Shown here: positions 1,393 through 59,345 of the stretch, piece by piece
Position numbering within the stretch: position 1 is the first letter of the stretch
How the letters are laid out: each line of letters starts with the position of its first letter
NCBI GenBank assembly: GCA_963713865.1
Contig: OY970208.1
Location: 651,957 to 715,956 of the forward strand
Direction of reading: 5' to 3'
Length of the DNA stretch: 64,000 bases
From: an uncultured candidate division Zixibacteria bacterium
Lineage (GTDB): Bacteria > Zixibacteria > MSB-5A5 > RBG-16-43-9
The notes under the pieces: generated by a model
What the model saw: the letters and a program-made list of their open reading frames with translations, nothing else
Told to the model about the DNA's origin: nothing
The model's database searches: none
Made by a program: the position numbers and the translations under genes

Positions 1393-1612
1393 TTACCGTA
1401 ACGTCCTCACTCCTATTCTCCCCTCCCTTGACGACCGATTAAAGCTTTACGGTCCTACGGGCTACGCCCCCGCCTGTCGGCGGGAGGCTACGCTCCTCGT
1501 AGAGGAGGGGTTAAGGGGGAGGGTGACCCCTCTCCCTACCCTCTCCCACAGGGGGAGAGGGAATTATAATCGTTGTCACTGGAGTGGCAACGCTATCTTC
1601 TCCCTCGTTTTA
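1393..1612. repeat. composite GC-rich hairpin repeat, P family
   Basis: …gattaaagctttacgg…cgtagaggaggggttaagggggagggtga…ccctctcccacagggggagagggaat…. Confidence 0.8.
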
Positions 1613-1768
1613 TATTAATACGCAAAGAAGATAGAGTCAATTTAATTCTGGATGGAAAAAGAAAAATAGAAGATGAAAAATAACGCTCTTTGTGGGTGTC
1701 CTCACCAAAGACCAGCAGAAAGTTCGGAGTGCATCGTCCGTGACGACGCACTTCAAATCACCCAATAC

Positions 1769-2425
1769 TCACTCCACTACTATCTTTTTATCTCTTATAT
1801 AAACTTTCTTTGTTTCCCCTGGCTTCAAAATAAAAGTATCAGATTCAAGCTTCTCAGGTTTAACAAATAAGAGAATCTTTTTCCATTGGTAAATCTTGTT
1901 CCAGATCTCTGTTTGTCCCCCGGAAAGCGTATAAGCCTTCAAATCCTTTTGTAAGGTATCAGAAAATTCCTCTAACCGTGTTAGTTTATATCCATCTCTG
2001 AATCCAAAAAAGCTTAAGGAGTTATCCCAGTTTAAAACCTCTGCTTGGAGCTTGAGTTTTCTATTCCCTGATATCTCAAATGTTTCTTCATAGGTTTTTC
2101 TCTCTTTACCTGCAGAGTAAAGATATAAAGTCAAATAAGAATCACCAGCCGGTTCTGTTTTAATTTCTCCGACAAATTTTTCAGAAACCAAAGAATCATA
2201 AGGACGCAGATAATTCTGCATCTGAAAAAATAACCAGGCAAAAAAGATAAACAGGATTGAGAAAAAGAAAATTATAAATCTGATTAGAGCTCCATAACCT
2301 CTTTTCTCAGACTCGTCTTGAGCATAGCGAGCTCTGGCTAATATCCAGAAAAAGAGTATAAAAAGTAAAACCAAACCCAAGCCAAGAAAAATCCCCCCAA
2401 AAATTGCAATTTTTGTTTCAGGCAT
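1769..2425 (-). CDS. hypothetical membrane protein (downstream partner of MoxR ATPase)
   Basis: 218 aa; two hydrophobic helices at N-terminus; operon position after moxR. Confidence 0.5.
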   Translation of the reverse strand: MPETKIAIFGGIFLGLGLVLLFILFFWILARARYAQDESEKRGYGALIRFIIFFFSILFIFFAWLFFQMQNYLRPYDSLVSEKFVGEIKTEPAGDSYLTLYLYSAGKERKTYEETFEISGNRKLKLQAEVLNWDNSLSFFGFRDGYKLTRLEEFSDTLQKDLKAYTLSGGQTEIWNKIYQWKKILLFVKPEKLESDTFILKPGETKKVYIRDKKIVVE

Positions 2426-2529
2426 AATTCCCCCTCTCCGGGTTTTATGTCCTATAAACCGAAACTCAGATGATGATTTAAACCATTTATTTTACTCTTT
2501 AAGTTAACCCTAAAAAGAGTCAACATTTA

Positions 2530-2640
2530 ACAAAATGGATGTGGATAAATATCTTTTCGAACCCGCATTCTTTTATGATAACCCTTTATATTATAATAAT
2601 TTAACATGCTATCCACATATCCTCTTTTTTTATCCACATT
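2530..2640. promoter_or_regulatory. cluster of three DnaA-box-like sites ~23.6 kb from dnaA (TGTGGATAA 2540-2548; cTATCCACA 2609-2617; TTATCCACA 2630-2638) in an AT-rich intergenic region
   Basis: boxes read from the sequence. Confidence 0.5.
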
Positions 2641-2653
2641 TTGAAAAAAATTC

Positions 2654-3469
2654 CTAATTTATATATTCATCTGGAACCAAAGGTATATCATCTTTTCTTA
2701 TTTCATAATGCAAATGGGGAGTAGGTCTTCCGGTTCTCCCGGAAAGGGCAACTACCTCACCCCTTTTAACCCTGTCACCTTGTTTAACGAAGATTTCCGA
2801 ACAGCTGCAATAATAAGTTTTGTATCCATTTTCGTGATTTATGATAATCAGGTTTCCATATTTTCTATCCTTACCCACAAAATCTATCAAACCATCTGCA
2901 GTTGCTTTGATTTCAGTTCCAATCCTTGCAGAGATATCGATTCCCGAATGCTCTTTTTTTGTTCCGGAATTCAGAGAATAATTTTTAATTATTTTCCCCT
3001 GAAGGGGTAATCCGGATGGAATGGTGGAAAAGATCGGTATTTTCTGGGTTTTCAACTGAGAAACTGTATCCTTAATATTTAATAGAGAAAGCTTTTCCGT
3101 TCTAATATTCTTAATAGAATCCTTATCTACCGGGAATTTCACACCAGCTATCTGGGCTACCTGATGAGCAAATATACGATATTCCCTTAGCTCCTGTTCC
3201 AACTCTTTCACTTTAGAGTTGTACATCTTCAGCTGCTGGTTCTCCTTTGAAAGAGCTTGATTTAATACCAATTGAGAATTAAGTTTACCATAAGAAAAAA
3301 TTAGAAAAACGAAAAAAGCCAAAAGAAGAAAGAGTATACCCATTAAAAGAACAACAATATTAATAGATAATTTGAAATTTAATCCTTTTCCCTGGTCCGG
3401 CTCTACAGGTCCGTTCCCGGATGAAATTGAAAATTTTAGGTGATGGATTTTCTTAATATTTATCTTCAT
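2654..3469 (-). CDS. M23 family metallopeptidase (LytM-like)
   Basis: 271 aa; N-terminal TM/coiled coil; C-terminal HLHYEIR and GxTGxxTGPHLHYE-type M23 signature. Confidence 0.8.
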   Translation of the reverse strand: MKINIKKIHHLKFSISSGNGPVEPDQGKGLNFKLSINIVVLLMGILFLLLAFFVFLIFSYGKLNSQLVLNQALSKENQQLKMYNSKVKELEQELREYRIFAHQVAQIAGVKFPVDKDSIKNIRTEKLSLLNIKDTVSQLKTQKIPIFSTIPSGLPLQGKIIKNYSLNSGTKKEHSGIDISARIGTEIKATADGLIDFVGKDRKYGNLIIINHENGYKTYYCSCSEIFVKQGDRVKRGEVVALSGRTGRPTPHLHYEIRKDDIPLVPDEYIN

Positions 3470-3640
3470 CTTTCCCTTCCTTGATGGCCGATAAAAGCTT
3501 TACGGTGGCTACGCCCTTTGCTCCTCGTAGAGGAGGGATATAAGGGAGGGTGAAAGTATTTTTATTCCCCCTTCTCCCTAATCCTATCCCACGAGGGGAG
3601 AGGGAATAAACTTTCTTGGAACGGGCACCCTTGCCTGTCT
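3470..3640. repeat. composite GC-rich hairpin repeat, P family
   Basis: ttgatggccgataaaagctttacgg…cgtagaggagggatataagggagggtga…cccacgaggggagagggaat. Confidence 0.8.
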
Positions 3641-5438: not shown

Positions 5439-8349
5439 CTATTTCAGCAAGCTCATCTTGGCAGTCTTGGTAAAAGTTCCAGTCTGCATCCGGTAGAAAT
5501 ATATACCAGAGGCAACCTCTTCACCCCGATCGTTTGTGCCATCCCAGAAGATAGTATAATACGCAGGAGATTGAGTCTCATCCACTAAAACTCTGATTTT
5601 CTGACCCAGAAGATTATAGACCACTAACTTTACCTGGCTTTCCTCAGCCAGAGCATATTTTATGATTGTTCCGAAATTGAAAGGATTAGGATAATTCTGA
5701 AAAAGCTCAAATTTCTCTGGAACAACTGATGAGGCAGTTATCTTTCGTTGCTCAGGGTCTTCTGGAAAACAGTTATTTGTAGTTCCTGAGACTATACTCA
5801 CTGTATTGGAAGGATTACTCAAATCACTCGCATAATCAATAGCATAAACTTTAAAGTTGTAACTTTTTCCAAGCTCCGGCACGCAGAAAATCGTGCTTGT
5901 AGAGGTCGCTGGCACTGTCTGAGATTGAGTCCAACTTCCCCGGATTGCTGTAACCTTATACTGGGTCAAAGTGCCGGCTTTCTGATTTAAAGGTGGTTGC
6001 CAGGATAGAATAATTTCATTGGTATAGCAATAGGGACAGATTCCATTAATACTCATTCCTCCTACTGAACCAAAGCCAGGACAGCAAATCCTGTTCAACC
6101 TGGCAGTTAAATTACGCGGTGGATTAGGAAAATTTTTAACTGTAACCTCGTTGGAATATTCTGAGAAATATTGTTGGTCAAATGCCCGCACCCTGTAATT
6201 ATAAGTCTCACTTCCAACCAAGGTTGTATCAGAATAACTCGTTACATTGGAGTCAGTCGAGCCAATCTGAGACCAATTGGCTCCATCAGCTAATTTTCGC
6301 CACACTTCATAACCGGACTCATTTACATTAGGGTCAGACCAGGAGAGATTGATTCGTTGTGGAGAGCTCTGTCTACTGCCAGATAAATTGGAGGGGAGAA
6401 AGTTTGCCAGTCTGAAGAGCTTACCTTCTCCTGGGTTTAATATAGTATGAAAAATACCATATCCCGGAAAAGTATCAACCACCCCTCCTGTTAAGCAATC
6501 TATGAGATAGAAATAACGGCTTTTTTGTAAAGTAACCCTCTCACAGGGCATCTCGAGATACCCTACCCAGCGGTTCACTAACATCAGATAATCTTCTCCC
6601 AGACTATCATCTTTAAACATCCCCACCTGAACGTAATTTGAGTAGACTGGATATTTACAGGAAAAACCACAGTTAATACACGCTACGCCTGTAACTGATC
6701 CTACAAAACTCTCGGGAGCTGCCAAGACAGAATCACCCGGACCGGCCCATTTCCATTCAAGCTTTCTCAGGACAGGTCCTAAAACATCAAGTTTCTCATT
6801 TATTTGTTTGACTGCATCAAATAAATACTCATGCGTGCCGGCATAATATTGATTCTCAGGGTAAGGGTAAGTCTGAACTGGTATCCCGCTGGTATCTACT
6901 AAACCGCCATGGATAAGCGAATCATTTCGCCAGTAAGATGCATATCTGAAATACCCAACTCCTTTGGCACCATAGGCTAATGCCATATATACTGTGGCTT
7001 TTAACTCATTATTATGTGGATACCTGTAAATATCAGGATATAGAGCTTCCCAGTAAGCATCAGCACCATACCACCATTCTTTACCTTTGGTTTCTGCAGC
7101 ATTAGCTACTTTACTTACCCTCACAGCAAAAGAATCTAAGGTGGCTTGCCAGGCCTCGTTATTATTTTCAGGAGTCCTATCTCTTATTATTGGGTAATCG
7201 TCATAGAAAAGCTCATTGGGATAAGGATAAAGCTCATCCAAATATCTGTAAGTATTCCGAAATATAAAATCACCTGTAGCCTGAATGCCGGGTGCATAAT
7301 GTACTGAATCAAGGATTCGGTGAACTCTTTTACTACTGCGATATTGGTCATAATCTGGTTCATCCTGTAAACACCAGCGATATAAGGATGAATCACCAAA
7401 CTGCTCTTCGAGGGGCTTTATATTTGGGTCATTTATAAGTTTCCATTGATAGACAGTATAAGTTGTATCGGGAAGGTATTTGACGTTGAATAATGAATCG
7501 TAGATATGGTCATAAACTTCAACATAATCTATGTAAAGGTCTGTCTGCTTATACCAGTAAACCTTATAGTCAAATGAATCCCGTGAGTTATATGGTGGTC
7601 TTTCGAAAGTGAGTGTGAAAGGGTAGTATTGACCAGCAAAAGAATCATCATAGATTATAAGCCTTTCAACCAAAACCGAATCATTCCAGGTTTCCGCTAT
7701 CACATCCCAGTCATAAAGATGCACCTCTAAATTTGCCACTGTATCATTAGATGAATAGCCAGAAGGAACCTTTAATTTGAAGATGACATTGTAAACCAGA
7801 ACCACTATCCCTATCCTGCTCCCGGCTGTAATCGATACCATTAGGGTCATTCCAGAGACTATCCAAAACATACCCTCGATTATCATTTGGATTGTTCTTA
7901 GAGACAAACCAGGCATACACATAGGGAATTACTGTGCTATCTACGACTTGCTGACCATGACCAGCGTTATCATATTCCAGTTTAGTGCTCAGAAAACGGA
8001 TTTGGTTCTCAGGATCTGGAGGTTGAAAGTAATCCGGTGCATTATGTCGATCTGCCTGATACATACTGTATTGCCCCCAGGAATAGTATGCAGCATTTGC
8101 ATTTATCAGGTTCAAATGGTAGTTTTGAGCTGCAGTAAAATCATCTGTTTTAAAAGAAGTTCCGCTCTGAATCAGGGCGGTTAAACCAAGGGTATCTACT
8201 GCCTGGCAAAAGTACGGATAATAAGCGGAAGCAGTTGTACTATAAGGTGGCATATAGGCGATTCTGGGTAATTTATCCTCATAAGCAGAGACTATAATAA
8301 TTGAATTTATTATAATCATTAAACCAAATAAAAGAATTTTTTTAAGCAT
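5439..8349 (-). pseudogene. large secreted protein with FN3-like region and T9SS C-terminal sorting domain, split by a frameshift (ORFs 7747..8349 and 5439..7922 overlap in different frames)
   Basis: N-terminal ORF has a signal peptide (MLKKILLFGLMIIINSIIIVSA). The C-terminal ORF ends with a Por/T9SS CTD (NYPNPFNFGTII...GIYFYRM). The two ORFs overlap at 7747-7922, offset by one frame. Confidence 0.55.
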
Positions 8350-8365
8350 TTTTCACCCCAAAAAG

Positions 8366-9883
8366 TTACTTAATAAGTAAAAGTTTTTTACAATCTTTAA
8401 ACTCAACTGTCCCGAAGGGATCCGTACGGACACTTAACTGATAGAAATAAATCCCACTTGACACCTCCTTCCCTGAATTGTCCTTCCCGTCCCAAACAAC
8501 CTGGTAAGTTCCTGACTGTTTTTCTTCATCTACCAGAGTTTTCACTTTTTGCCCTAGTAAATTATAAATCATCAGGGTAGTGGGGATGGGTTTGCCAAAC
8601 TCCAAACTCCCAACTCTAAACTGTATTATTGTGGATGAATTAAAGGGATTAGGGTAGTTTTGGCTCAATTCAAAGTTGTGAGGAAGAGTAGTTTGTTCTT
8701 CTTCAATCGCAGTATAAGGATTTTTATAAACATAAACCCTGCCTGGAGGATAGGATGGATTATTATACCACCAGCCAGGATCGCCTACTATGGCCTCATC
8801 TACTCCATCACCATTGATGTCAGCAACACTTACTTGACTACCATAATCACCCACTTCAGAATCATAATAATGCCAATCTTGTATTGTATCCAAAGGGTTA
8901 GAACCTAAATAGGTCCAAGCTTCCCCGCCAGCTAACGTTGGAACCCCCGAGAGTAGATCCTCATATTTATCTTTATTAAAATTGCCAATTGCCCAGGATT
9001 GACCTCTGATACAAAGAGGCGCGTCTATTAGAGAGTCTATTGTATTGCCTCCAAAATATGTTCCTTCAACTGTTATTATATCCTTATATCCATCTCCGTT
9101 AACATCTCCTAAAATTACAAATCCACCTTTTAATTTTACTCTTGGTATGGTGTCTAACTGCAGTCCCCCGAAATAAATATAGGTAGAGTCATCAGGATAA
9201 TGCTCGCTGGTGGAAACTGCCAAATCTCCATAACCATCCCCATTCATATCCCCTATGGCTAACCCGTCAAAACCAAAATAATTCGGAGGTCCCTGTAAAA
9301 CATAAGCAGGTGAGGTTGACATATCTGCCCCACCCAAATATACGTACACCCAGGTAGGACTTCCATGGATAGCAACATCATCATAACCATCCTTGTTAAT
9401 ATCACCCGTAGCAATATTATCTTCAAAATAAGGGGTTGCCAGAATTTTGTCTGGAACTGTATCAAAAGGAGTACCCCCATAATAAATCCAAACCGCTGAA
9501 AATGAAAATGGAGCTACAAGCAAATCTTCAATACTATCCCCATTCACATCACCAGCAGATATGTATCTAGATGAAAAAAGAAACATAACATCAGGAATAG
9601 TATCAAAATTCTTGGAGCCAAAATAGATAAAGGTTTTCCCTACTTGCCCTACTCCTAAATCTTCAAATCCATCCTTATTTATGTCCCCTATTCCAGCTAA
9701 AACATAACCAAAATAAAGAGTATCCCTTGCCCCTTGCATTACAGCTATCTGTTGCATACCAAACTGAGCTAAAGCGGAGTTACTAAAAAGTAAACTTAAT
9801 AACAAAACGATTAGAAAACTTTTCTTCTCTGACATTTCAAATCCTTGACTTATAATCTCAGTTCCTATCAATAAATTAAGCAA
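8366..9883 (-). CDS. FG-GAP (integrin-alpha-like) repeat protein with T9SS C-terminal sorting domain
   Basis: 505 aa; signal peptide; repeated DxNxDGxxD motifs (DINKDGFEDL, DVNGDSIEDL, DMNGDGYGDL); CTD NYPNPFNSSTII...GIYFYQL. Confidence 0.8.
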   Translation of the reverse strand: MLNLLIGTEIISQGFEMSEKKSFLIVLLLSLLFSNSALAQFGMQQIAVMQGARDTLYFGYVLAGIGDINKDGFEDLGVGQVGKTFIYFGSKNFDTIPDVMFLFSSRYISAGDVNGDSIEDLLVAPFSFSAVWIYYGGTPFDTVPDKILATPYFEDNIATGDINKDGYDDVAIHGSPTWVYVYLGGADMSTSPAYVLQGPPNYFGFDGLAIGDMNGDGYGDLAVSTSEHYPDDSTYIYFGGLQLDTIPRVKLKGGFVILGDVNGDGYKDIITVEGTYFGGNTIDSLIDAPLCIRGQSWAIGNFNKDKYEDLLSGVPTLAGGEAWTYLGSNPLDTIQDWHYYDSEVGDYGSQVSVADINGDGVDEAIVGDPGWWYNNPSYPPGRVYVYKNPYTAIEEEQTTLPHNFELSQNYPNPFNSSTIIQFRVGSLEFGKPIPTTLMIYNLLGQKVKTLVDEEKQSGTYQVVWDGKDNSGKEVSSGIYFYQLSVRTDPFGTVEFKDCKKLLLIK

Positions 9884-9903
9884 AATATCTATTTAGTCAA
9901 CAG

Positions 9904-11394
9904 TTATTTGATTAACAAAAGTTTTTTACAATCTTTAAAACTGCCTGCCTTTAACTGATAGAAATATATTCCACTCGACACCTCCTTTCCTGAATTGTCC
10001 TTCCCATCCCAGATGATACTGTAACTACCTGGGGATTTATCTTCATCTACCAATGTCTTAACCAACTGCCCCTGAATATTATAAATCTTTAAGGTGATGT
10101 GGATGGGCCTCATAGCTCCAAGCTCCAAGCTACCAGCTTGGAAGGGTATGGTGGTGGAGAGGTTGAATGGATTGGGATAGTTTTGACCCAAAGCAAAAAT
10201 AGAGGGTAATTGCTGTGCTTCATCTTCAACCGCTGTATATGGATTCTTATAAATATAAACCCTGCCTGGTGGATAGGATGGGTTATTATACCACCAACCA
10301 GGGTCTCCTACAATTGCTTCATCCACTCCATCCCCATTAATATCTACCGCTCCTACCTGATCGCCGTATGCACCTACCTCATAATCACGATAGTGCCAAT
10401 CCTCTATTGTATCTAAGGGATTACCACCTAAATAAATTACTGCATCACCACCAACTATAGAGCCAGAGCCCCATAGATAATCCTCATATCCATCTTTATT
10501 AAAATTACCAATGACATTAGAGCGACCCCTTGTAAAAAGAGGTGAGTCCATTACTGAATCTATGGTAACTCCTCCAAAATAAGTTCCTTTATCTGTTATC
10601 AAATCCATATAACCATCTCCATTCATATCTCCTAATATAACATCCCCCCCCCTCAACTTCAATCCGGGAATTGTATCTAACTGCACTCCACCGAAATAAA
10701 TATAGGTAGAGTCATCAGGATAATGCTCGCTGGTGGAAACTGCCAAATCTCCATAACCATCCCCATTCATATCCCCTATGGCTAACCCGTCAAAACCAAA
10801 ATAATTCGGAGGTCCCTGTAAAACATAAGCAGGTGAGGTTGACATATCTGCCCCACCCAAATATACGTACACCCAGGTAGGACTTCCATGGATAGCAACA
10901 TCATCATAACCATCCTTGTTAATATCACCCGTAGCAATATTATCTTCAAAATAAGGGGTTGCCAGAATTTTGTCTGGAACTGTATCAAAAGGAGTACCCC
11001 CATAATAAATCCAAACCGCTGAAAATGAAAATGGAGCTACAAGCAAATCTTCAATACTATCCCCATTCACATCACCGGAAGATATATATACAGATGAAAA
11101 AGGAAACACTATATCCGGGATGGTATCAAAGTTTTTTGAACCAAAATATAGAAAGGTCCTACCCACTTGCCCAATACCTAAATCTTCGAATCCATCTTTA
11201 TTTATATCACCTATTCCAGCTAGAATATAACCAAAGTAAAGGTTGTCAGTCGCCCCCTGCATTGTAGCTATCAGTTGCATATCAAATTGGGCAAAAGCAG
11301 GGCTACAAAAAACTAAGCAAAAAAGCAAAAGAGTTAAAAATTCTTTTTTCTCTAACATTTCTACCATTTTCACTTTTTTAAAGATTGACCTCAT
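9904..11394 (-). CDS. FG-GAP repeat protein with T9SS C-terminal sorting domain (tandem paralog of 8366..9883)
   Basis: 496 aa; same architecture; central 385 bp identical to the neighbouring gene. Confidence 0.8.
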   Translation of the reverse strand: MRSIFKKVKMVEMLEKKEFLTLLLFCLVFCSPAFAQFDMQLIATMQGATDNLYFGYILAGIGDINKDGFEDLGIGQVGRTFLYFGSKNFDTIPDIVFPFSSVYISSGDVNGDSIEDLLVAPFSFSAVWIYYGGTPFDTVPDKILATPYFEDNIATGDINKDGYDDVAIHGSPTWVYVYLGGADMSTSPAYVLQGPPNYFGFDGLAIGDMNGDGYGDLAVSTSEHYPDDSTYIYFGGVQLDTIPGLKLRGGDVILGDMNGDGYMDLITDKGTYFGGVTIDSVMDSPLFTRGRSNVIGNFNKDGYEDYLWGSGSIVGGDAVIYLGGNPLDTIEDWHYRDYEVGAYGDQVGAVDINGDGVDEAIVGDPGWWYNNPSYPPGRVYIYKNPYTAVEDEAQQLPSIFALGQNYPNPFNLSTTIPFQAGSLELGAMRPIHITLKIYNIQGQLVKTLVDEDKSPGSYSIIWDGKDNSGKEVSSGIYFYQLKAGSFKDCKKLLLIK

Positions 11395-14425: not shown

Positions 14426-14800
14426 TTACCTGTCCTTAGTTCCGGCTGCAGGAATCTTCCTCAGCTTCATGATAAGGGATAAAATACCCAGTCCTATTAG
14501 CAGAGCGATGATGCCATAAACCCACCAGGGGATGTTCCGCCCAAAGAAGATCACATAGATAAAGGGCGCTACGGTAGCGCATAGAAAGATTGCGGTCCAG
14601 AGTATGACTTTTTTCCAGAGCTTTTTGGTGAGGGATTGAATGGTGCGAAATAATGAATAGTAGAATACCGGCGCACAAACCAGGTAAATAATCAGGAATA
14701 CAACCGGATTGACACCATAATCATCACGAGCCATCTGTAATAGTTCCTCTATCTTTGATATTACATAATCTAACATCCTCTGATATCTCCATTCATTCAA
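14426..14800 (-). CDS. hypothetical small membrane protein
   Basis: 124 aa; three predicted TM helices; inside the inserted region. Confidence 0.45.
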   Translation of the reverse strand: MNEWRYQRMLDYVISKIEELLQMARDDYGVNPVVFLIIYLVCAPVFYYSLFRTIQSLTKKLWKKVILWTAIFLCATVAPFIYVIFFGRNIPWWVYGIIALLIGLGILSLIMKLRKIPAAGTKDR

Positions 14801-14931
14801 TAATACAAGTGTTTAGCACCCAACTGACCCGCTTCACCTACCCGAAGGGTGGTCGGATGCAACCACTTGTTGGGCATCGGCAAGACATCACATCTATCCT
14901 GATTCGTCTCAAAGTCTAATCAGCCTAACTT

Positions 14932-15108
14932 CTCGACAATAAAAAGAAAGTCCACCCGATGCGCCCAGGGAAACCCGAGCGTAACGTTCGGGAATATTGA
15001 GATGACTTCACCCTCCAGGCCGTTCAGGAATTGCTCTAATTTGTTCTGGTCGCTTGTCATCCTGATATCGAACCGGTGCACCCTGTATTTCATCATCCTG
15101 ACTCCTTT
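14932..15108 (-). CDS. hypothetical 58-aa protein (Cse60-like small protein?) not in the ORF track
   Basis: ATG..TGA frame read manually from the sequence: MMKYRVHRFDIRMTSDQNKLEQFLNGLEGEVISIFPNV...; weak resemblance to the Cse60/DUF2758 small-protein family. Confidence 0.3.
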
Positions 15109-15144
15109 TTAAATAATTTACTATCTGTTTATACTACTACCAAG

Positions 15145-15675
15145 TTATGTACCTAACGAGATGCGCTGTATTGTTTTCACTGTATCATTTTCATAATTCG
15201 CCACGTCGAGTATCGCAATGCGTCCTGCTATCGCAAACTCCTCCTTGTTCCAACTTTCAGCCATTTCGATGCACTTTAGCGGGTCTTTTGAGTTCCCTAT
15301 TCCCATATGCGGAACAAAGTTGGCAAAGAGCGCACGATGTGGAAATAGCTTATCAGCGTATAGTTTGTCGTGGAGCTTTACGATTTTGCTGTACCCTTCA
15401 TCTGGCACCAGAAAAGTGTGATAATTATCGTTGAAGGAATCTTTATTGAGAACAGCACAGCGCAGGCAGAACTCAAATGGTCGAACTCCTTGCACTTGCT
15501 TCACGATTTCCGAGATAAAAGGTTTGGCTTCCCAACCTTTACGTATAGGAAATACAAGCGCAAAATGTGGCTCGACCACATGGTAATATAACTCGTCATT
15601 ACGTTTTCGGAATTCCTGTATCCGCTCATAATCGCTTTTTTTAATTTCTGGATACGCAAGCACTAATAGTGCCAT
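15145..15675 (-). CDS. hypothetical protein (weak 2H-phosphoesterase-like features)
   Basis: 176 aa; higher GC than its surroundings; no firm motif match. Confidence 0.45.
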   Translation of the reverse strand: MALLVLAYPEIKKSDYERIQEFRKRNDELYYHVVEPHFALVFPIRKGWEAKPFISEIVKQVQGVRPFEFCLRCAVLNKDSFNDNYHTFLVPDEGYSKIVKLHDKLYADKLFPHRALFANFVPHMGIGNSKDPLKCIEMAESWNKEEFAIAGRIAILDVANYENDTVKTIQRISLGT

Positions 15676-15984
15676 AGCTATTACTCCCCATTATGAAAGT
15701 TGATTTGAAAACTTTCTTGCATTTCGCTGCCTAACGCCATTGTTGGCCACTTTTCTTTTCACGGCTTTCTTGATAAATCGAGCCTCTTTTTCTCCCTCTT
15801 CATTCCGAATCTGGATCCTGTGGACCGGAAGGAGCCAGAGGTGCTCCTCCATCGTCTCAAACCAGTCTGGCATGTTTCGGTTCCTATATGGTCAACTATG
15901 CGGATGAACCGCTCCGGTGAGACCGTCCGCGCTTTATACGGGTCGGCCGAAACCGGTTGGTAGGTAAAAACCGTTAAATGGACA

Positions 15985-16323: not shown

Positions 16324-16425
16324 ATCGAATCTCCTCCAAGTTTTTTTTATAGAGGCCTAACATGGGTTTATCTATACTAATTAAATTGCGATCGTTGGCT
16401 TTCTCAACCATATAAACCTCCTTTA
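16324..16425 (-). promoter_or_regulatory. conserved leader module A1 (SD plus 33-codon small ORF 16310..16411 overlapping the downstream start)
   Basis: aaggaggtttatATGgttgagaaagccaacgatcgcaatttaattagtatagataaacccatgtta…; homologous to the modules at 17873-17962 and 20295-20380. Confidence 0.7.
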
Positions 16426-16435
16426 TTTGTATCTT

Positions 16436-17962: not shown

Positions 17963-17967
17963 AAACT

Positions 17968-32156: not shown

Positions 32157-34664
32157 TTGATATGGTCAATGCACTCCATAAAATATAATATGCCCCTTGA
32201 AAGAGAAAAAGTAGTTCCGGTCCTTTTAGAAGAGGAGATGAAATCCTCCTATATCGACTATTCTATGTCGGTAATCACTGCCCGGGCTCTGCCGGATGTC
32301 AGGGATGGGCTGAAACCCTCTAATCGCCGGATCTTAGTAGCGATGAACGATCTGAATTTAGCCCCGGGCAGACCTCATCGTAAATGTGCCAAGATAGCAG
32401 GTGATACTTCAGGTAATTATCATCCTCACGGTGAGCAGGTGGTCTACCCCACTTTAGTCCGTATGGCTCAGGATTTCAATATGAGATATACTTTAGTCGA
32501 TGGACAGGGTAATTTTGGCTCCATCGACGGGGATGCACCAGCAGCGATGAGATATACAGAGGCGAGGTTTACCCCTTTTGCTATGGAGGTACTGGCTGAT
32601 TTAGAGAAAGATACTGTCAATTTCGTCCCTAACTATGATGGGACCAGAAATGAACCGGTAGTTTTACCTTCTAAATTCCCGAATCTAATCTGCAACGGCT
32701 CCTCCGGGATTGCAGTTGGAATGGCGACCAATATCCCCACTCATAATCTTTCAGAAGTAGTAGATGCTTTAGTATCTTTAATCGATGACCCGGAATTAGA
32801 AGATGAAAAGCTTTTAAAATATATCCAGGGACCTGATTTTCCCACCGGTGGTATCATTTACGGCAGGAGCGGGATAAAAGAATATTTTAGAACCGGAAGA
32901 GGTCGCCTGGTCTTAAGGGCAAGGGCAAATATTGAAAGGCAGAAATCCGGTAAAGAGAGTATCATTGTCACCGAGATTCCTTATCAGATAAATAAAGCCA
33001 ACCTCTTAGAGAAGATAGCGGATTTAGTCACAAATAAAGTCATAGAGGGGATCTCAGATTTAAGGGATGAGTCTGACCGGGAAGGGATGAGGATAGTAAT
33101 AGAGCTGAAAAAGGAAACCCCGGCTGAGATAACCTTGAACCAGCTCTTTAAGCTGACCCAGATGCAGTCAACCTTCGGGGTGATAATGTTAGCCTTAGTG
33201 GATGGGGTGCCTAAGGTTTTAAATCTAAAAGAGCTTCTCATTTTATTTATAGAACACCGGCATACAGTCATAATCCGCAGGACAAAATACGAGCTTGCTC
33301 AGGCAGAACACAGAGCGCATATACTTGAAGGTTTGAAGATTGCCCTGGAGAATATAGATGCGGTTATAAAACTGATCAAATCCTCAAAAGACCCGGCTGA
33401 GGCTAAAGATGGTTTAATGAAGAAGTTCAATATGACGGAGATTCAAGCCCAGGCTATACTGGATATGAGACTGCAGAGGCTTACCGGCCTGGAAAGAAAA
33501 AAAGTTGAAGAGGAATATTTAGAGTTAATTAAACTGATTGCTACCCTGAAAGGGATATTGGAAAGTAAAGCTAAGAGGATGAATATCATTAAAGAGGAGC
33601 TTTTGGCTTTAAAGAAAAACTTTGGGGATCTAAGGAGGACTGAGATCCGGGAAGAGGAGGAGGAGTTCACCATAGAAGACCTGATCGCCGAAGAAGATAT
33701 GGTGATCACTGTTACCCATTATGGATATATAAAGAGACTGGGCATTGATGCTTACAGGAGACAGGGTCGTGGTGGCAAGGGGGTTATCGGTATAGAGACC
33801 AGGGAAGAGGATTTTGTGGAGCATCTTTTTATCGCTTCAACTCATGATTATATCCTCTTCTTTACCAATATCGGGAAATGCCACTGGCTTAAAGTTCACG
33901 AGATCCCGGTTGGTGGAAAGGTTACCAAAGGTAAATCGATTACCAACCTTCTGGATTTAGCTGAAGGGGAGAGGATAAGAGCTTTTGCACCGGTTAAGGA
34001 GTTTGTTGAGAACCGCTATGTGGTGATGTCGACTAAAAAAGGGACCATCAAAAAAACCGAGCTTTCTGCCTTTTCAAACCCGCGAAGGGGTGGGATTAAT
34101 GCTATAAATATTGACGAAGGGGATGAGCTGATTGAGGCGACCATAACTGATGGAACCTGCGATATAGTTTTAGGGACAAAAGAAGGTTTGGCTATAAGAT
34201 TCCCTGAAGATAAGGTTAGAAGTATGGGTAGGACAGCTTATGGGGTTAAGGGAATCTCCCTGCGGGGGAAAGCCGATAAAAGCCTTACGGCTCGTAGAGA
34301 TGAGGTCGTAGGGATGGTGGTGATAAAGAGGGATGCAACATTACTGGTAGTAACTGAAAACGGTTTTGGCAAGAGGACTCCAATTTCCGATTACCGGGTA
34401 ACTAACAGGGGTGGTAAGGGGGTTATAAATGTTAAGACTTCTGAAAGAAACGGTAAAGTTGTGGCAATAAAAGAGGTTTTGGAAGATGACGAGCTGATGA
34501 TTATAACCGAGAAGGGGATTATAATAAGACAGCCAGTAAAACAGATTAAAGAGATTGGGAGAAATACCCAGGGGGTTAAGCTGATTAATCTGGATGAAGG
34601 GGATAGGGTGGTGGATGTGGCACGGGTAGTTAAGAGCGAAGAAGAAAGTTCAAACGTTCAATAA
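32157..34664 (+). CDS. gyrA: DNA gyrase subunit A
   Basis: 835 aa; active-site region AMRYTEARFT; C-terminal beta-pinwheel repeats; the true start is possibly the downstream Met (MPLERE...). Confidence 0.95.
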   Translation: MIWSMHSIKYNMPLEREKVVPVLLEEEMKSSYIDYSMSVITARALPDVRDGLKPSNRRILVAMNDLNLAPGRPHRKCAKIAGDTSGNYHPHGEQVVYPTLVRMAQDFNMRYTLVDGQGNFGSIDGDAPAAMRYTEARFTPFAMEVLADLEKDTVNFVPNYDGTRNEPVVLPSKFPNLICNGSSGIAVGMATNIPTHNLSEVVDALVSLIDDPELEDEKLLKYIQGPDFPTGGIIYGRSGIKEYFRTGRGRLVLRARANIERQKSGKESIIVTEIPYQINKANLLEKIADLVTNKVIEGISDLRDESDREGMRIVIELKKETPAEITLNQLFKLTQMQSTFGVIMLALVDGVPKVLNLKELLILFIEHRHTVIIRRTKYELAQAEHRAHILEGLKIALENIDAVIKLIKSSKDPAEAKDGLMKKFNMTEIQAQAILDMRLQRLTGLERKKVEEEYLELIKLIATLKGILESKAKRMNIIKEELLALKKNFGDLRRTEIREEEEEFTIEDLIAEEDMVITVTHYGYIKRLGIDAYRRQGRGGKGVIGIETREEDFVEHLFIASTHDYILFFTNIGKCHWLKVHEIPVGGKVTKGKSITNLLDLAEGERIRAFAPVKEFVENRYVVMSTKKGTIKKTELSAFSNPRRGGINAINIDEGDELIEATITDGTCDIVLGTKEGLAIRFPEDKVRSMGRTAYGVKGISLRGKADKSLTARRDEVVGMVVIKRDATLLVVTENGFGKRTPISDYRVTNRGGKGVINVKTSERNGKVVAIKEVLEDDELMIITEKGIIIRQPVKQIKEIGRNTQGVKLINLDEGDRVVDVARVVKSEEESSNVQ

Positions 34665-35381: not shown

Positions 35382-35739
35382 ATATACTCTTTAGATGATT
35401 TTAGTCCGCCAGAAGCGGAGATGGTTGACAACCATTTTTGATTGTCAAGCAGGCTAAGCCATACTTGATCTACAAGCTGTCTGTTCCTTTGTATTTGAAC
35501 TCAGATTGTCCGTTCGGCTGAGCTCACGATGAAGCCCTCTCCTAAAAGGAGAGAAGAAATTAAGTAGGGGTGGGGTCACCCCGCCCTTTGGCGGGTCGCC
35601 ACTACGAAAATATTGTAAGGACAGAACATTGTTCTGTCCCTACGCTGATTTGTCATTGCGTTCCCGTAGGGGGACTTCTTGCAATGACCAGATTTTCATA
35701 GGGGCGTATTGCAATACGCCCCTACCTTTTGTTCCATAA

Positions 35740-36735
35740 TTAAAAATGTCTATAACCGGTTTTCTTCAAATTTCTGATTTTACCATCCTGATTTAAAATC
35801 TTAACCCCTTCCTCTTTTCTCTTAATCTCTCCTATTAAGCTAACCTGAAATTTACCCTGAGTAATTTTTCTTAGCTTCTCTTGTTCCTCTGGGCTTAAGG
35901 TGAAAAGAAGCTCGTATTCCTCTCCTGAGCTTAAAGCTAAATTTAGAGGTGAAAGGTTTAAAAGCTTACAAGCCTCTCTCGTTTTCTGGCTAACAGGAAT
36001 TTTGTCAGCAGAGATTAAAGCTCCCTTATTGCTCTCCTCGCAGATATGATATAGATCAGAAGAAAGCCCGTCGCTAATATCGATCATCGAGGTTACCTTC
36101 AAGTTCTTCACTAAAAGCCTGCTTTCCTCTATCCTCGGATAAGGGGTAAGATGTTTTTTTATAATGGAGCTATTAAATGGGATTTTATTCTTTGAGGATT
36201 TTTTCAAAAATCTTAATCCAGCCTCAGCTTCCCCCAAATCACCTGTCACGCAGATTAAATCCCCGACTTTTGCACCTGACCTGGTCTTAAACAGATTTTT
36301 TTCAACCTCTCCTAAGAGTGATATGGTTATCACTAAAGACTTAGATGAGAAAATATCTCCTCCTACAACCGGGCACTTGAATCTTGAAGATAGGGTTTTC
36401 AGTCCGGAATAGAGCTTCAGAATATCTTCAACTTTTGTTCTTGATGAAACCCCCAAGGAAATTATCCCGGCTAAGGGAATCCCTCCCATAGCGGCAATAT
36501 CGGATAGATTTGCAGCTATACTTTTCCAGCCCACATCTCTGTAAGAACAATATTTTAAGTCGAAATGGACTTTCTCCATCAGGGTATCGGTGGTGAAAAC
36601 CAAGAGTTTATTTTTTGAGTATCTGAGGACCGCCGCATCATCCCCGATATTTAAAACAACTCTTTTGTCCCTGGTATAGATTTTCTTTCGGATTAAATCA
36701 ATCAGCCCGAACTCGCCTATATTTTTTAATTCCAT
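35740..36735 (-). CDS. thiL: thiamine-monophosphate kinase ThiL
   Basis: 331 aa; N-terminal GEFGLIDLI...IGDDAAVL signature of ThiL/AIR-synthase-related fold. Confidence 0.8.
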   Translation of the reverse strand: MELKNIGEFGLIDLIRKKIYTRDKRVVLNIGDDAAVLRYSKNKLLVFTTDTLMEKVHFDLKYCSYRDVGWKSIAANLSDIAAMGGIPLAGIISLGVSSRTKVEDILKLYSGLKTLSSRFKCPVVGGDIFSSKSLVITISLLGEVEKNLFKTRSGAKVGDLICVTGDLGEAEAGLRFLKKSSKNKIPFNSSIIKKHLTPYPRIEESRLLVKNLKVTSMIDISDGLSSDLYHICEESNKGALISADKIPVSQKTREACKLLNLSPLNLALSSGEEYELLFTLSPEEQEKLRKITQGKFQVSLIGEIKRKEEGVKILNQDGKIRNLKKTGYRHF

Positions 36736-36749
36736 TTTTCAGTTTCCCT

Positions 36750-36975
36750 CGTTGTCACAGGAGTAACAACGCTACCATCATTTCCTCCTGTAGCGTCCTC
36801 ACTCCTGTCCTCCGGATCCGCTCCTAAGGATGAAGACGACTGTATTTCTCCTCCTTTGATGGCCGATAAAAGCTTTACGGCTCGTAGAGGAGGGGATAAA
36901 GGGGAGGGTGATTCCAAAATACCTTTATATTTACCCCTCTCCTTAATCCTCTTCCACAAGGGAAGAGGAAAATAT
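36750..36975. repeat. composite GC-rich hairpin repeat, P family (…gataaaagctttacgg…cgtagaggagggg…ggggagggtga…ccctctcc…ggaagagg)
   Basis: shares modules with 1393-1612, 3470-3640 and 59150-59345; ORF 36726..36959 is an artefact of this repeat. Confidence 0.8.
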
Positions 36976-49432: not shown

Positions 49433-49653
49433 AGGATTTATTTTTAGTAAGGCAAACCTCCAGCTTTGCTCAGGCAACTCAAAAAAATAGAGACGCATAG
49501 CAATGCATCTCTACAAATTCTTTTCCCCTCTCCTCCCAGGAGAGGGTGAGGCTACCATTTCGCAACCTCATCTTGCTCTAAAAGTGAAATCGTAGGGGCA
49601 ATGCATGTCCAATTGGATCCATCTCGAAATTGCCCCTACCAGAATATTTAATC

Positions 49654-50070: not shown

Positions 50071-50253
50071 CCTATCCCTCCGTTTTTGATTATGGGTTAA
50101 CTTATTTATTCTATTTTAATAAAACTACTAATTATAAAGAAAGCAAGGAAATTTTTGAAGTATAAAAAGATATTTTTTGTTTTCTATCTTATCCTGTCAT
50201 TGCGAGAAGTCTCGCCGAAGGAGGGACTCGCAATGACGTCCTATTAATAGCCT

Positions 50254-52418: not shown

Positions 52419-52421
52419 AAT

Positions 52422-57070: not shown

Positions 57071-57173
57071 TGCAATTTTTTCAATTTAAAAATATTTCCG
57101 CTAACTTGTTCATCTCTGCATTGCCGATAAAAGCCTTACGGTTCGTAGAGCGAATATTATCCCATTTTAGGGG

Positions 57174-57240: not shown

Positions 57241-58117
57241 GCAAAGTGGTATGGGTAATGCCAAACTTCTCCTGCAAAATTCTATTTGCCTCTTTTAACA
57301 TCTGGTCGCTTTTGCTCACCATCTGGTCCTCTATAACTAAATGCCCGGATAAAGCGTAGATCCCTGAAGATATAGTCCAGAGATGCAAATCATGCACATC
57401 CTTAACTCCTTTGATCTTCTTGATCTCCCCAGCGATAGTTTCCGCATTCAGATGTTTAGGAACCGCCTCCAAGAGTATATTACTTGACTCGGTAATCAAA
57501 CCTATAGCCCCTCTCAAGATTATTCCGCCGATCAAAATTGCAACAATCGGGTCAATTAAATAGAATTTAGTAAAAAATATAATTATCCCTGCTACTATTA
57601 CTCCGATCGAAGACAAGGCGTCCCCTAAGATATGCAAGAATGCTCCTCTGATATTCAGATTACCCCTGCTTGAGCCTTTTAATATTAAGATCCCAATTAT
57701 ATTTACCACAAGCCCTAAGGTTGCAACTCCTAACATCAAAGGTGCTTTTATCTGCGGAGGGGCAAGAAAGCGTCTATAAGCTTCATAGAATATGTATCCA
57801 GAAATAAAAATCAAGGTTACTCCATTCAAAAGGGCAACTAAGATTTCCGTTCTGTGAAATCCGTAGGTTCTCCTGGCATCTGCCGGTCTTCTGGATAATT
57901 TTAAAGCAAAAAAACTCAAAGCCAGGGCTAAAGTATCGGTGAGCATATGCCCGGCATCACCGATTAGGGACAAACTACCGGATAATATCCCACCCAGAAA
58001 CTCCACTAAGGTCATCAGTGCAGTTAATAATAGAGGAATTACTAAAACCTTTGGCTCAGGTTTGAAATTATTGTTGTGATTATGCTCAGACATATTGATC
58101 TTTCGTAGCGTCCTCAC
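57188..58117 (-). CDS. cation diffusion facilitator (CzcD-like) transporter
   Basis: 309 aa; 6 TM helices plus C-terminal cytoplasmic domain; HxxxD-type motifs. Confidence 0.85.
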   Translation of the reverse strand: MRTLRKINMSEHNHNNNFKPEPKVLVIPLLLTALMTLVEFLGGILSGSLSLIGDAGHMLTDTLALALSFFALKLSRRPADARRTYGFHRTEILVALLNGVTLIFISGYIFYEAYRRFLAPPQIKAPLMLGVATLGLVVNIIGILILKGSSRGNLNIRGAFLHILGDALSSIGVIVAGIIIFFTKFYLIDPIVAILIGGIILRGAIGLITESSNILLEAVPKHLNAETIAGEIKKIKGVKDVHDLHLWTISSGIYALSGHLVIEDQMVSKSDQMLKEANRILQEKFGITHTTLQLECLACSKFPVCNLGE

Positions 58118-58218
58118 TTTTTGTCATTGCGAGGAGTCCACAGGACGACGAAGCAATCCGTCCCTCACAGAGTAAACAGATTGCTTCGTCTCGCCTTTGT
58201 GGCGGACTCGCAATGACA
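58105..58218. repeat. nested-palindrome repeat, G family (gtcattgcgag...gacgaagcaatc...gattgcttcg...ctcgcaatgac)
   Basis: copies at 50195-50239, 51376-51466, 58105-58218, 35652-35688; covaries with the H family. Confidence 0.85.
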
Positions 58219-58283
58219 AGAGAAGATGATAGCCGCAACCTTTAGGTTGCGTAAATCCTGATTTCGCAGGCTTAAGCCTGCGG

Positions 58284-59111
58284 CTACCACTTCAACTCCT
58301 CAACCACCTTAACTATAATCTTCTTCAGATTTGGCTCAGCCTTATTGGCTGTAGCTATTATCTCCTCTAAATTTGTCGGCTTTAAAGCATCTGGTAGCCC
58401 CATATCCGTGACAATCGAAAAACCCAGAACCTTCATTCCCTGATGCCTTGCTACTATAACCTCAGGCACAGTTGACATCCCAACCACATCTGCTCCAGTT
58501 CCTCTTAAAAATCTATATTCAGCTGCAGTTTCCAAATTAGGTCCGGCTACTGATACATAAACCCCTTTTTGCAATTTTGTGCCTAATTTCAATGCACAAT
58601 TTTCTGCTAAAGCGATCAATTCTTTATCATAGCAGTTATACATATCCGGGAACCTTGGACCTAAAAACTCATCATTTGGACCAATCAGAGGATTACTCCC
58701 TAAAAGATTTATATGGTCAGAAATAACCATTATATCTCCAGCTTTATATTGAGGATTCAATCCTCCGCAGGCATTAGAGACAATCAAAAGCTCAATCCCA
58801 AGGGCTTTCATCACCCGTAAGGGGAAGGTTACCTGCTGCATTGTATAACCTTCATAATAATGGAACCTCCCCTGCATAGCTAAAACCTTTTTATCTGAGA
58901 TTTTGCCAAATAAAAGCCTTCCAAAGTGGCTTTCCACAGTTGAGACCGGGAAATGGGGAATGTCCTGGTAATCTATCTTATGTTCTACTTTAATCCCTTC
59001 AGCTAAGGAACCCAGCCCTGTGCCCAGGATAATCCCTATCCGGGGCTTGTAATCTGCTTTTTTTAGAATAAAATCTTTTGCCTGTTTGATTTTTTCTTTC
59101 AGGTTTTCCAT
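58284..59111 (-). CDS. punA: purine nucleoside phosphorylase (PNP family I)
   Basis: 275 aa; GRFHYYEGY and VGMSTVPE motifs. Confidence 0.8.
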   Translation of the reverse strand: MENLKEKIKQAKDFILKKADYKPRIGIILGTGLGSLAEGIKVEHKIDYQDIPHFPVSTVESHFGRLLFGKISDKKVLAMQGRFHYYEGYTMQQVTFPLRVMKALGIELLIVSNACGGLNPQYKAGDIMVISDHINLLGSNPLIGPNDEFLGPRFPDMYNCYDKELIALAENCALKLGTKLQKGVYVSVAGPNLETAAEYRFLRGTGADVVGMSTVPEVIVARHQGMKVLGFSIVTDMGLPDALKPTNLEEIIATANKAEPNLKKIIVKVVEELKW

Positions 59112-59149
59112 TATTTACATCCGTTTTTTAAGATTCAAATTTCTTTCTA

Positions 59150-59345
59150 AGGTAGCGTACCCACTCTCGTCCTGCGGATCCGTTAATAGGATGAGGACGA
59201 GCATATTTCCCCTCCCTTGATGGGAGGGGATGAAGGGGAGGGTGAGATTATTTTTATTCCCCTCTCCCTAACCCTCTCCCACAAGGGGAGAGGGAATCAT
59301 ATCTCCGCTACCAGAGCAAGCCCTTGTTGGGCACGAGTGGCATCG
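59150..59345. repeat. composite GC-rich hairpin repeat, P family (ccctctccc...gggagaggg)
   Basis: ccctctccctaaccctctcccacaaggggagagggaat; related to the copies at 1393-1612, 3470-3640 and 36750-36975. Confidence 0.8.

Follow-up and report, generated by a model that had tools for sequence, protein, structure and literature searches.

BoxC elements, also called PIT, have been known in Escherichia coli since the 1990s and, to our knowledge, have no accepted origin, mobiliser or function. Under the name TM_ECO they have been described by the pattern 5'-CCCTCNCCC N3-6 GGGNGAGGG N3 GGGNGAGGG (Holder et al. 2015, PMC4666352), with 23 copies in strain K-12, all of them intergenic and five as inverted pairs of two sub-types, 1 to 29 copies among E. 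coli strains, and 3610 occurrences across 262 proteobacterial genomes. The TM_ECO single strand forms a purine-motif intrastrand triplex in vitro, as seen by circular dichroism, nuclear magnetic resonance and footprinting; the motif is associated with rearranged loci, polymerase arrest has been reported, and the same study, in which older work by Hoyne and Maher on the triplex motif is cited, found neither a transposase link nor a mobility gene near E. coli BoxC (PMC4666352). GTAG repetitive extragenic palindromic (REP) sequences have an unpaired GTAG tag, a stem of 5-13 bp and a loop of 2-20 nt (Di Nocera et al. 2013, Table 1, PMC3733652), and are found as head-to-head and tail-to-tail dimers, in clusters and occasionally as intragenic units (PMC3733652). 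Here we describe composite repeats that combine both kinds of element in a 64-kb stretch of DNA (the window; 64,000 nucleotides of contig OY970208.1) from the chromosome origin region of an uncultured member of Candidatus Zixiibacteriota, in which dnaN, dciA, gyrB, gyrA, parB and rnpA are present; nearly all of the GyrA homologs that carry names are labelled Zixibacteria.

Each long copy of the composite is a mosaic of three kinds of miniature palindromic repeat, namely a core of two units (X-Y), flanking GTAG REPs, and a 27-nt hairpin (INS) or other small REPs nested up to three levels deep. The X-Y core is an element of the BoxC/PIT/TM_ECO kind, and modules A/B (plus strand) and F (minus strand) are GTAG-tagged REPs that bound it. 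We consider it probable that these BIME-like mosaics consist of mobile repeats that are non-autonomous and defined by structure, and that an enzyme of the RAYT type (REP-associated tyrosine transposase), encoded elsewhere, probably moves them. Loci fetched for comparison are cited by L numbers; the pattern search described below covered 171 of them, an E. coli control included.

Composite repeats with a BoxC-type core

The original prediction had placed four long copies at 1393-1612, 3470-3640, 36750-36975 and 59150-59345 (copies 1 to 4), and BLAST and MAFFT confirmed mutually similar sequences at these positions. The recurring modules exceeded the expectation from dinucleotide-preserving shuffles of the window: GATAAAAGCTTTACGG occurred at 7 sites against 1.0 expected (0/100 shuffles reached 7), GTAGCGTCCTCACT at 7 sites against 2.2, and the hairpin CCCTCTCCC..GGGGAGAGGG gave 6 matches against 0.0. 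The contrast with AT-rich surroundings also held (47-58% GC in the copies, 39.5% in the window), as did the spurious open reading frame (ORF) at 36726..36959, a mechanical ORF of 77 aa that overlies copy 3. The gene setting had been given as convergent or tandem; all four copies lie between tandem minus-strand genes, and none of the four is in a convergent setting. Partial copies at 49495-49560, 60790-60900, 61060-61110 and 61500-61545 are real yet heterogeneous, being degenerate triplex-type hairpins plus other REP-like hairpins, and three sites had been overlooked (34272-34298, inside gyrA; 58105-58290; 35534-35564). A dispersed, modular repeat family is supported by composites in the independent assemblies L127, L169 and L137, and by a core found in at least 120 genome contigs, so that the repeats are neither confined to the window nor a product of its assembly; the proposed label 'P family' has no counterpart, the established names being BoxC/PIT/TM_ECO and REP/BIME.

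A module order differing between copies, and its shuffling by recombination, had also been proposed. The MAFFT alignment was instead collinear, with a fixed order of REP A/B, X, spacer, Y and REP F, and the copies differed by the presence or absence of discrete inserts, that is, by small hairpin units gained or lost in loops; such precise gain and loss points to nested insertion, not to recombination between repeats. A complete copy, clearest in copy 4, reads on the plus strand REP A/B, unit X, an AT-rich spacer of 10-30 nt, unit Y and REP F. The single order difference is the F hairpin, which stands 3' of Y in copies 1 and 4 and 5' of A in copy 3, where, as a REP in inverted orientation, it pairs up with A as a head-to-head dimer.

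Unit X reads CCCCTCCC TTGAT GGGAGGGG ATGAA GGGGAGGG TGA (CCCCTCCCTTGATGGGAGGGGATTAAGGGGAGGG as a single-stranded oligonucleotide), and unit Y, on the plus strand, CCCCTCTCCC TAA CCCTCTCCC ACAA GGGGAGAGGG. The reverse complement of Y is laid out like X, with a hairpin, a short loop and a third G-rich block, and X and Y thus make up an inverted pair of related units. The block set of X differs from that of Y while following the same rule, by which the third block mirrors the purine block (G.G:C and A.A:T triads, T.A:T also being counted as compatible), and 8/8 positions were triad-compatible in X and Y of the window; judged from the sequence, this three-block layout is the design of a purine-motif intrastrand triplex. 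Within the window, the TM_ECO pattern was matched exactly once (minus strand, 59260-59294; 0 expected), and it was present in 52/171 fetched loci, the E. coli control among them, whereas Y of copy 1 departs from it solely by a 2-nt second loop and Y of copies 2 and 3 is degenerate. Furthermore, the E. coli hrpB-mrcB BoxC pair was collinear with the X-Y of the window, of a Nitrospirae metagenome-assembled genome (MAG) and of a Dehalococcoidia MAG, with loops that partly align.

The likeness to BoxC/TM_ECO thus comprises the order of the three blocks (a C block and a G block separated by a loop, then a short loop and a mirrored G block), blocks of the GGGAGAGGG / GGGTGAGGG type with similar loops, and multiple intergenic copies in inverted pairs with no adjoining transposase. 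The differences are that X of the window carries the blocks CCCCTCCC / GGGAGGGG / GGGGAGGG and a second loop of 5 nt; that its loops hold nested mini-elements and GTAG REPs bound the pair; that the hosts are uncultured anaerobes of many phyla, whereas the published TM_ECO search covered Proteobacteria; and that the Zixibacteria composites are biased in orientation against transcription, which is unreported for E. coli.

Among 430 pyrimidine/purine hairpins of 8-bp stem length from the window and the loci together, 196 had a perfect (8/8) mirrored third block, with a bimodal distribution of scores, and the mirror rule was kept in several asymmetric, sequence-distinct families (for example, GGGGGAGG then GGTGGGGG, GGGGAGGA then AGGTGGGG, and AAGGGGGG then GGGGGGAT). 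A permutation control gave a mean of 52 against 102 observed, an excess inflated by family structure, and mirror and direct rules were weakly separated once the symmetric GGGAGAGGG motifs were included. Between the window and L127, the orthologous copy 4 site shows a coordinated C:G.G -> T:A.A change across all three blocks. As to which strand folds, stem mismatches of G.T and A.C numbered 121 and 82, respectively, by a method that is biased.

Copy 4 was predicted to fold into multiple hairpins on either strand (plus, -102 kcal/mol, z = -6.7; minus, -104 kcal/mol, z = -7.2), with a closing stem of GGTAGCG..CCACTC and GAGTGG..CGCTACC, and copies 1-3 likewise fold as strings of hairpins. The ends of copy 4 are imperfect 16-nt inverted repeats, and these 'terminal repeats' are the REP heads. 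Module A has the simple form GTAGCG TCCTCAC TCCT GTGAGGA CG in L133 and the closely related form GTAGC GTCCTCA TTTCTA TGAGGAC GA in L127; the A/B copies of the window, laid out as GGTAGCG, a few bases and a hairpin, have expanded loops relative to these. REP F reads GTAGC GTTGCCACT CC AGTGACAAC on the minus strand and terminates in CGCTACC on the plus strand. Both A and F fit the definition of a GTAG REP, with an unpaired GTAG at one end of a short palindrome, and they stand tail-to-tail around X-Y in copies 1 and 4, heads outward, and head-to-head in copy 3; in the tandem arrays of L133, L134 and L170, REP A follows Y. Counts over the window were 4 for A heads, 3 for F hairpins and 12 for GTAGGGG heads.

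Among described systems, REP/BIME sequences share with these modules the unpaired GTAG head and short stem-loop, the dimers, the clusters with other motifs between unidirectional genes, and small units inside genes, a replication gene included; REPs with an A-type head also flank RAYT genes in related contigs. They differ in that the window holds no RAYT, the loops are often expanded by inserts, and the GTAG of INS lies 3' of its hairpin. REPINs (Bertels and Rainey 2011, PMC3116915) offer a further parallel, the replicating unit here being seemingly an inverted doublet (X-Y, or A...F) in a long hairpin and not a single hairpin, whereas the X-Y halves are not near-identical, carry triplex-type third blocks and have an indirect RAYT link. 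Miniature inverted-repeat transposable elements such as Correia/NEMIS and ERIC are likewise ~200-bp, non-coding, intergenic units with a long fold, and the imperfect inverted ends of copy 4 recall theirs; in contrast, neither target-site duplication nor clean ends were found for the composites, and no parent insertion sequence was identified.

Distribution of the core and the 27-nt INS element

The X core GGAGGGGWTNARGGGGAGGGTGA was found in no fewer than 120 genome contigs, to which the depositors had assigned at least 13 labels of phylum level: Nitrospirota/Thermodesulfovibrionia, Desulfobacterota, Dehalococcoidia (including a complete chromosome), Ratteibacteria, FCPU426, Stahlbacteria, WOR-3, Zixibacteria, Aminicenantes, Aerophobetes, Firestonebacteria, Nitrospinota, Verrucomicrobia and Actinomycetota. 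The prevalent form among the loci listed is the short X seen in copy 4, with Y after or before it, and in this cross-phylum sample 104/123 X cores lay outside long ORFs. Copy 4 and a Nitrospirae copy shared 92% identity across 92 nt that include the spacer. In a Dehalococcoidia MAG (L065, 4000-4560), X-spacer-Y was repeated in tandem at least four times, with a period of ~115 nt. Carriage by phages was rejected, as the X core had 0 matches among IMG/VR viral contigs. The X tail TAAGGGGAGGGTGA resembles a perfect Shine-Dalgarno sequence, and a mobile Shine-Dalgarno was rejected as its general role, given that few loci have a real start directly after it (10/123, against 14% in a random-position control). 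Neither did X prove to be the end of a larger insertion sequence: short conserved sequences follow X in ~10 loci, and these are only ~30-nt hairpins with no transposase downstream.

INS is a 27-nt hairpin, GCCGATAAAAGCYTTACGGCTCGTAGA, with the layout GCCG(A)TAAA AGC TTTACGGC TC GTAG A; the module 'gataaaagctttacgg' of the original prediction is part of it. In the window it lies in loop 1 of X in copies 1-3, alone between genes at 57123, and in-frame in gyrA at 34272, where it encodes ADKSLTARR. Among 120 GyrA homologs, this peptide was present only in the window and its seven closest proteins (at least 98% identity) and was missing from the other 113 homologs, those of 96-97% identity included. 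The empty DNA site in L167 reads CTGCGGGGGAAA / GATGAGG (the slash marks the junction), revealing a precise gain of 27 nt. The INS-free gyrA of L169 (~2100-2200) carries a different insert, likewise of 27 nt and in-frame (RGLEPSGSG), which falls in the same loop of GyrA but three codons upstream.

INS was recovered from 44 loci in metagenomes, in the loops of X, of Y/TM units and of TGTCATTCTGAG-type, TGTCATTGCGAG-type and other hairpins, as well as in plain spacers. Two other genes also carry it in-frame, one at a TadA-like N-terminus and one coding for a membrane protein, with the reading frame constant. It was inside a hairpin loop in 19/35 distinct contexts, against 10% of random positions, and the base directly after it was always G.

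The small dispersed repeats (SDR) of heterocyst-forming cyanobacteria, attributed to Elhai and co-workers (2008), are reportedly palindromic units of ~21-27 nt nested in one another, in other repeats and in genes. They would resemble INS in size and nesting; sequence and host are unrelated. Elements of the RPE-1 type are ~100-150 bp long. As with Rickettsia palindromic elements (PMC3733652), in-frame insertion of INS adds a short peptide and leaves the protein otherwise intact (gyrA, the TadA-like gene and the membrane protein), the differences being that INS is 27 nt long, belongs to another phylum and mostly lies in hairpin loops of other repeats.

Turnover, candidate mobilisers and rival explanations

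The comparison of insertion sites between relatives that had been suggested for these repeats showed the copy 3 and copy 4 sites filled in some and empty in others. The copy 3 site is empty in L167 (GyrA 97% identical), with ~25 nt between the genes, and is occupied in L169 (95%) by a composite without INS that bears, unlike its window ortholog, a 21-nt GGCTACGCC-type unit in the loop of hairpin B. At the copy 4 site, the DivIVA-PNP spacer of L170 (89%) measures 7 nt, whereas L127 has X, Y and F conserved and different 5' modules. The same composite occupies the lspA-rluD spacer of L137, where the window has other repeats. In addition, divIVA of the window ends in a TAG stop codon (59346-59348) that REP F of copy 4 supplies from its GTAG tag, and the last residues of DivIVA differ among the window, L127 and L170, indicating that the inserted repeat remodelled the gene end. 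The C block of X in copy 2 (window 3469-3482) lies directly upstream of the M23 peptidase start (3469) and reads GGAAGGGAAAG on the minus strand, which is likely to be its ribosome-binding site.

The window is also inverted from ~35.2 to 60.8 kb relative to L170, in which yggS, divIVA, PNP, the cation-efflux gene and ileS come directly after gyrA and on its strand. Both breakpoints (window 34757-35672 and 60784-61846) and the L170 junction are clusters of REPs and triplex-type hairpins. The yggS gene of the window (PLP-binding, Ala_racemase_N; 60051-60736, minus) is broken by a frameshift in the vicinity of 60308-60314 (in tblastn, the L170 YggS of 229 aa aligned in frame -1 over residues 1-143 and in frame -3 over 142-229), and is either a pseudogene or a sequencing error.

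Y1_Tnp genes were detected in 2/44 INS loci, L158 and L124, by an iterative search with E. coli RayT and were confirmed with Pfam. The RAYT genes of L158, L172 and L174 adjoin acetyl-CoA carboxylase genes, L158 and L172 being syntenic, and are flanked by GTAGCGTCCGAC..GTCGGACG REPs (GTAACG in L158) plus an inverted partner ending in CTAC. These REPs have in common with A of the window (GTAGCGTCCTCAC..GTGAGGACG) the head GTAGCGTCC and the tail GGACG, and L172 comes from the same metagenome as L170, a Zixibacteria relative of the window. The arrangement of REP, RAYT gene and inverted REP has the geometry of REP-A, X-Y and REP-F. In L124, the RAYT-like Y1_Tnp gene (7981-8685, minus) is split in-frame by a GTAGGGG-type REP hairpin pair (8320-8385), and an X(INS)-Y composite lies 740 nt from it.

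As BIME-like mosaics, the composites would be selfish elements copied into new intergenic spacers and hairpin loops by way of DNA in single-stranded form. The REP and INS parts would likely owe their movement to a Y1 (HUH) transposase of the RAYT type, encoded at another site in the genome and acting in trans. REP-A, X-Y and REP-F have the geometry of a REPtron, in which a RAYT gene stands between a REP and an inverted REP, except that a BoxC pair takes the place of the gene, which suggests that the three could move as one piece. Mosaics between co-transcribed genes would probably be read through and would serve secondarily, at most, as very stable intercistronic mRNA structures.

Several observations weigh against this explanation. 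Neither Pfam, applied to 29 ORFs, nor jackhmmer, started from E. coli RayT and run over all ORFs of at least 80 aa, detected a transposase in the window, and no RAYT was seen near any of the 120 X-core loci listed; taken with the lack of mobility genes near E. coli BoxC, this suggests that the BoxC core may spread by another route. The RAYT link was drawn from contigs of related metagenomes, not from the source genome, and the tag of INS follows its hairpin on the GTAG-reading strand, a polarity opposite to that of canonical GTAG REPs, of which INS is therefore not one. Comparisons of filled and empty sites for whole composites gave no clean ends or target duplications, the entire spacer being different, and the statistics of the mirror rule are weakened by the shared ancestry of the copies and by symmetric motifs, with controls that were only partly clean. 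Lastly, among Zixibacteria-related loci, X was antisense to co-directional flanking genes at 12 independent sites and sense at 2 (two-sided binomial probability ~0.013), a bias that a purely DNA-level selfish element does not predict and that leaves room for an RNA-level or transcription-coupled component.

That bias would be expected if the composites were primarily functional RNA, as intercistronic mRNA structures or small RNAs acting in the stability of upstream cistrons, in the setting of processing sites or in translation of the downstream gene, with spread being secondary, which we consider unlikely. Each of the four window copies has flanking genes that run in one direction, the orientation of copy 3 still follows transcription although its segment is inverted in comparison with a relative, and the predicted folds are highly stable; no terminator-like site lies in copy 4, making read-through of a very stable intercistronic structure plausible, the repeat arms provide neighbouring genes with Shine-Dalgarno-like sequences or a stop codon, and many REPs have been argued to act as RNA (Di Nocera et al. 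2013, PMC3733652). Yet across phyla the orientation of X was unbiased (23 vs 19), use of the Shine-Dalgarno-like sequence together with a start codon was not enriched, flanking genes were functionally unrelated, and close relatives lack the element at the same junction. A known RNA family was rejected, with no Rfam 15 match at gathering scores in the whole window and chance-level hits of at most 19 bits for copy 3 at the E-value threshold, and the purine-motif triplex design cannot form in RNA (PMC4666352). There is likewise a small chance that X and Y are DNA signals useful to the host and kept by selection, with triplexes that would make replication pause, serve as binding sites for a nucleoid- or topoisomerase-type protein, or favour rearrangement. 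This would account for the mirrored third block kept across several families, the coordinated base changes at the copy 4 site, loop sequences conserved from E. coli to Dehalococcoidia, and the hairpin-bearing repeat clusters at both breakpoints of the inversion (at least 25 kb) relative to L170, and it agrees with the in vitro triplex, polymerase arrest and rearrangement link of TM_ECO (PMC4666352). A positional role is not evident, however, since presence varies between close relatives; many window copies are degenerate, E. coli strains differ widely in copy number (1 to 29), and earlier in vivo tests revealed no effect on replication, transcription or conjugation (PMC4666352).

Recombination shuffling a pool of modules between copies, the view of the original prediction, is very improbable. 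The place of F in copy 3 and of REP A after Y in tandem arrays could be read as shuffling, and gene conversion could have produced the INS difference between copy 3 of the window and L169, whereas the order is conserved in all complete copies, the differences are clean insertions or deletions of whole hairpin units at loop positions, and inverted REP dimers and tandem arrays explain the apparent permutation. To assembly artefacts or chimeric joins we assign next to no probability: many X-core matches do lie near contig ends, as expected if repeats break assemblies, but the same composites with their flanking genes recur in independent assemblies of other samples (L127, L169, L141, L147), and elements are found inside long contigs, the complete Dehalococcoidia chromosome included. 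A farther-reaching joint reading, to which we give a low probability, would make X/Y one pan-bacterial, horizontally spreading mobile class that may range from E. coli BoxC to Zixibacteria, Nitrospirota, Desulfobacterota and Dehalococcoidia, and whose recognised or transposing form may be a folded single strand with an intramolecular triplex, handled by a hypothetical enzyme. INS would then act as an autonomous-looking target, either of this system or of a RAYT-type one, and may be among the smallest mobile elements known, homing to single-stranded hairpin loops beside G and, being 27 nt long, never shifting the reading frame; in an RNA variant of this reading, the mRNA copy of X in its favoured orientation may form a pyrimidine-motif RNA triple helix that protects the upstream cistron.

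Feature coordinates, neighbouring regions and significance

The modules of the four copies, their flanking genes and the other repeats of the window are listed in Table 1. Besides X/Y, A/F and INS, at least four intergenic hairpin repeat families are present in the window.

Table 1. Repeat modules, flanking genes and further hairpin repeats of the 64-kb window
Feature	Position	Strand	Details
Copy 1, flanking genes			MoxR / DUF4131-like
Copy 1, module A	1398..1412	+	truncated GTAG-type REP head (GTAACGTCCTCACTC)
Copy 1, unit X	1420..1526	+	C block 1420-1429, G1 1504-1510, G2+TGA 1513-1526
Copy 1, INS-like hairpin in X loop	1434-1452, tail 1496-1503
Copy 1, GTAG REP inside INS-like hairpin	1453-1495	-	three nesting levels (REP in INS in X)
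Copy 1, unit Y, BoxC/TM-type	1527..1561	-	CCCTCTCCC CCTGT GGGAGAGGG TA GGGAGAGGG; second loop 2 nt, not 3
Copy 1, REP F	1572..1597	-	minus strand reads GATAGCGTTGCCACTCCAGTGACAAC
Copy 2, flanking genes			M23 peptidase / ParB
Copy 2, unit X, 7-nt block variant	3474..3553	+	loop holds INS 3487-3505, tail 3524-3531
Copy 2, extra unit in X loop	3506-3523		18-nt GGCTACGCC unit
Copy 2, unit Y	3567..3604	-	degenerate
Copy 3, flanking genes			AIR-synthase-related / Reg_prop
Copy 3, REP F	36751..36776	-	head-to-head with REP A, 13 nt apart
Copy 3, REP A/B	36790..36842	+	loop expanded; GTAGCGTCCTCAC ... GATGAAGACGA
Copy 3, unit X	36847..36911	+	27-nt INS at 36862-36888, loop 1
Copy 3, unit Y	36934..36969	-	degenerate; hairpin TCCTCTTCC ACAA GGGAAGAGGA
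Copy 4, flanking genes			PNP / DivIVA
Copy 4, REP A/B	59151..59202	+	GGTAGCGTACCCACTC and hairpin CTCGTCCT..AGGACGAG
Copy 4, unit X	59209..59245	+	canonical, insert-free; CCCCTCCC TTGAT GGGAGGGG ATGAA GGGGAGGG TGA
Copy 4, unit Y	59260..59294	-	exact published TM_ECO/BoxC pattern
Copy 4, REP F	59305..59350	-	loop expanded; GAGTGGCATCGCTACC end pairs with REP A
Solo INS in gyrA	34272..34298	+	GCCGATAAAAGCCTTACGGCTCGTAGA, in-frame, encodes ADKSLTARR
Solo intergenic INS	57123..57149	+	originally predicted as partial copy 57110-57160
Further mosaic	58105..58290	+	REP A head, TGTCATTGCGAG-type long hairpin, two small hairpins
Partial triplex-type hairpin	49526..49555	+	CCCTCTCC..GGAGAGGG TGAGG, beside GTAGAGACGCAT-type hairpin
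Degenerate triplex-type unit	60826..60861	+	orientation opposite to Y of copies 1-4; at synteny breakpoint
Degenerate triplex-type hairpin	35534..35564	+	repeat cluster at the other synteny breakpoint
Hairpin family TGTCATTCTGAG...CTCAGAATGACA	224-308, 29396-29480, 59953-60042		long hairpins
Hairpin family TGTCATTGCGAG...CTCGCAATGACA	35650-35690, 50196-50237, 58120-58215
Hairpin family GTAGAGACGCATAGC...	114-154, 49482-49522, 61295-61325
GTAGGGG-headed palindromes	35699-35724, 49590-49641, 60866-60895

Outside the composites, window 14426-21524 is a run of minus-strand ORFs, mostly without a Pfam match. One of them encodes a SieB-like protein (19758-20294) and another a protein resembling 2'-5' RNA ligase (15145-15675), and the run holds repeats of 85 nt (16357, 17895 and 20304) and of 63 nt (16520 and 17996); it is possibly a defence or prophage-remnant island. 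At 8366-11394, two tandem paralogous genes (505 and 496 aa) share 76-80% DNA identity, with an internal periodicity of ~150 nt.

The composites are built from known kinds of bacterial repeat, here found in new phyla, and what is unusual is their breadth, their three-level nesting and the in-frame 27-nt element. For the study of genomes and metagenomes, such mosaics yield spurious Pro/Gly-rich ORFs, break metagenome assemblies and mark rearrangement breakpoints, and they remodel gene ends, as in the divIVA stop codon and the ribosome-binding-like sequence of the M23 peptidase. The INS in gyrA is a clean, recent insertion in an essential gene, within a clade of otherwise 96-98% identity, and INS could be used to mark strains and as a substrate in assays. 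The BoxC/PIT design, in nearly the same sequence, extends to many phyla of uncultured anaerobes, and its core is packaged with GTAG REPs in a REPtron-like geometry for which close relatives supply both filled and empty sites; this combination of breadth, REP packaging and filled and empty sites makes the question of movement testable in a defined set of genomes.

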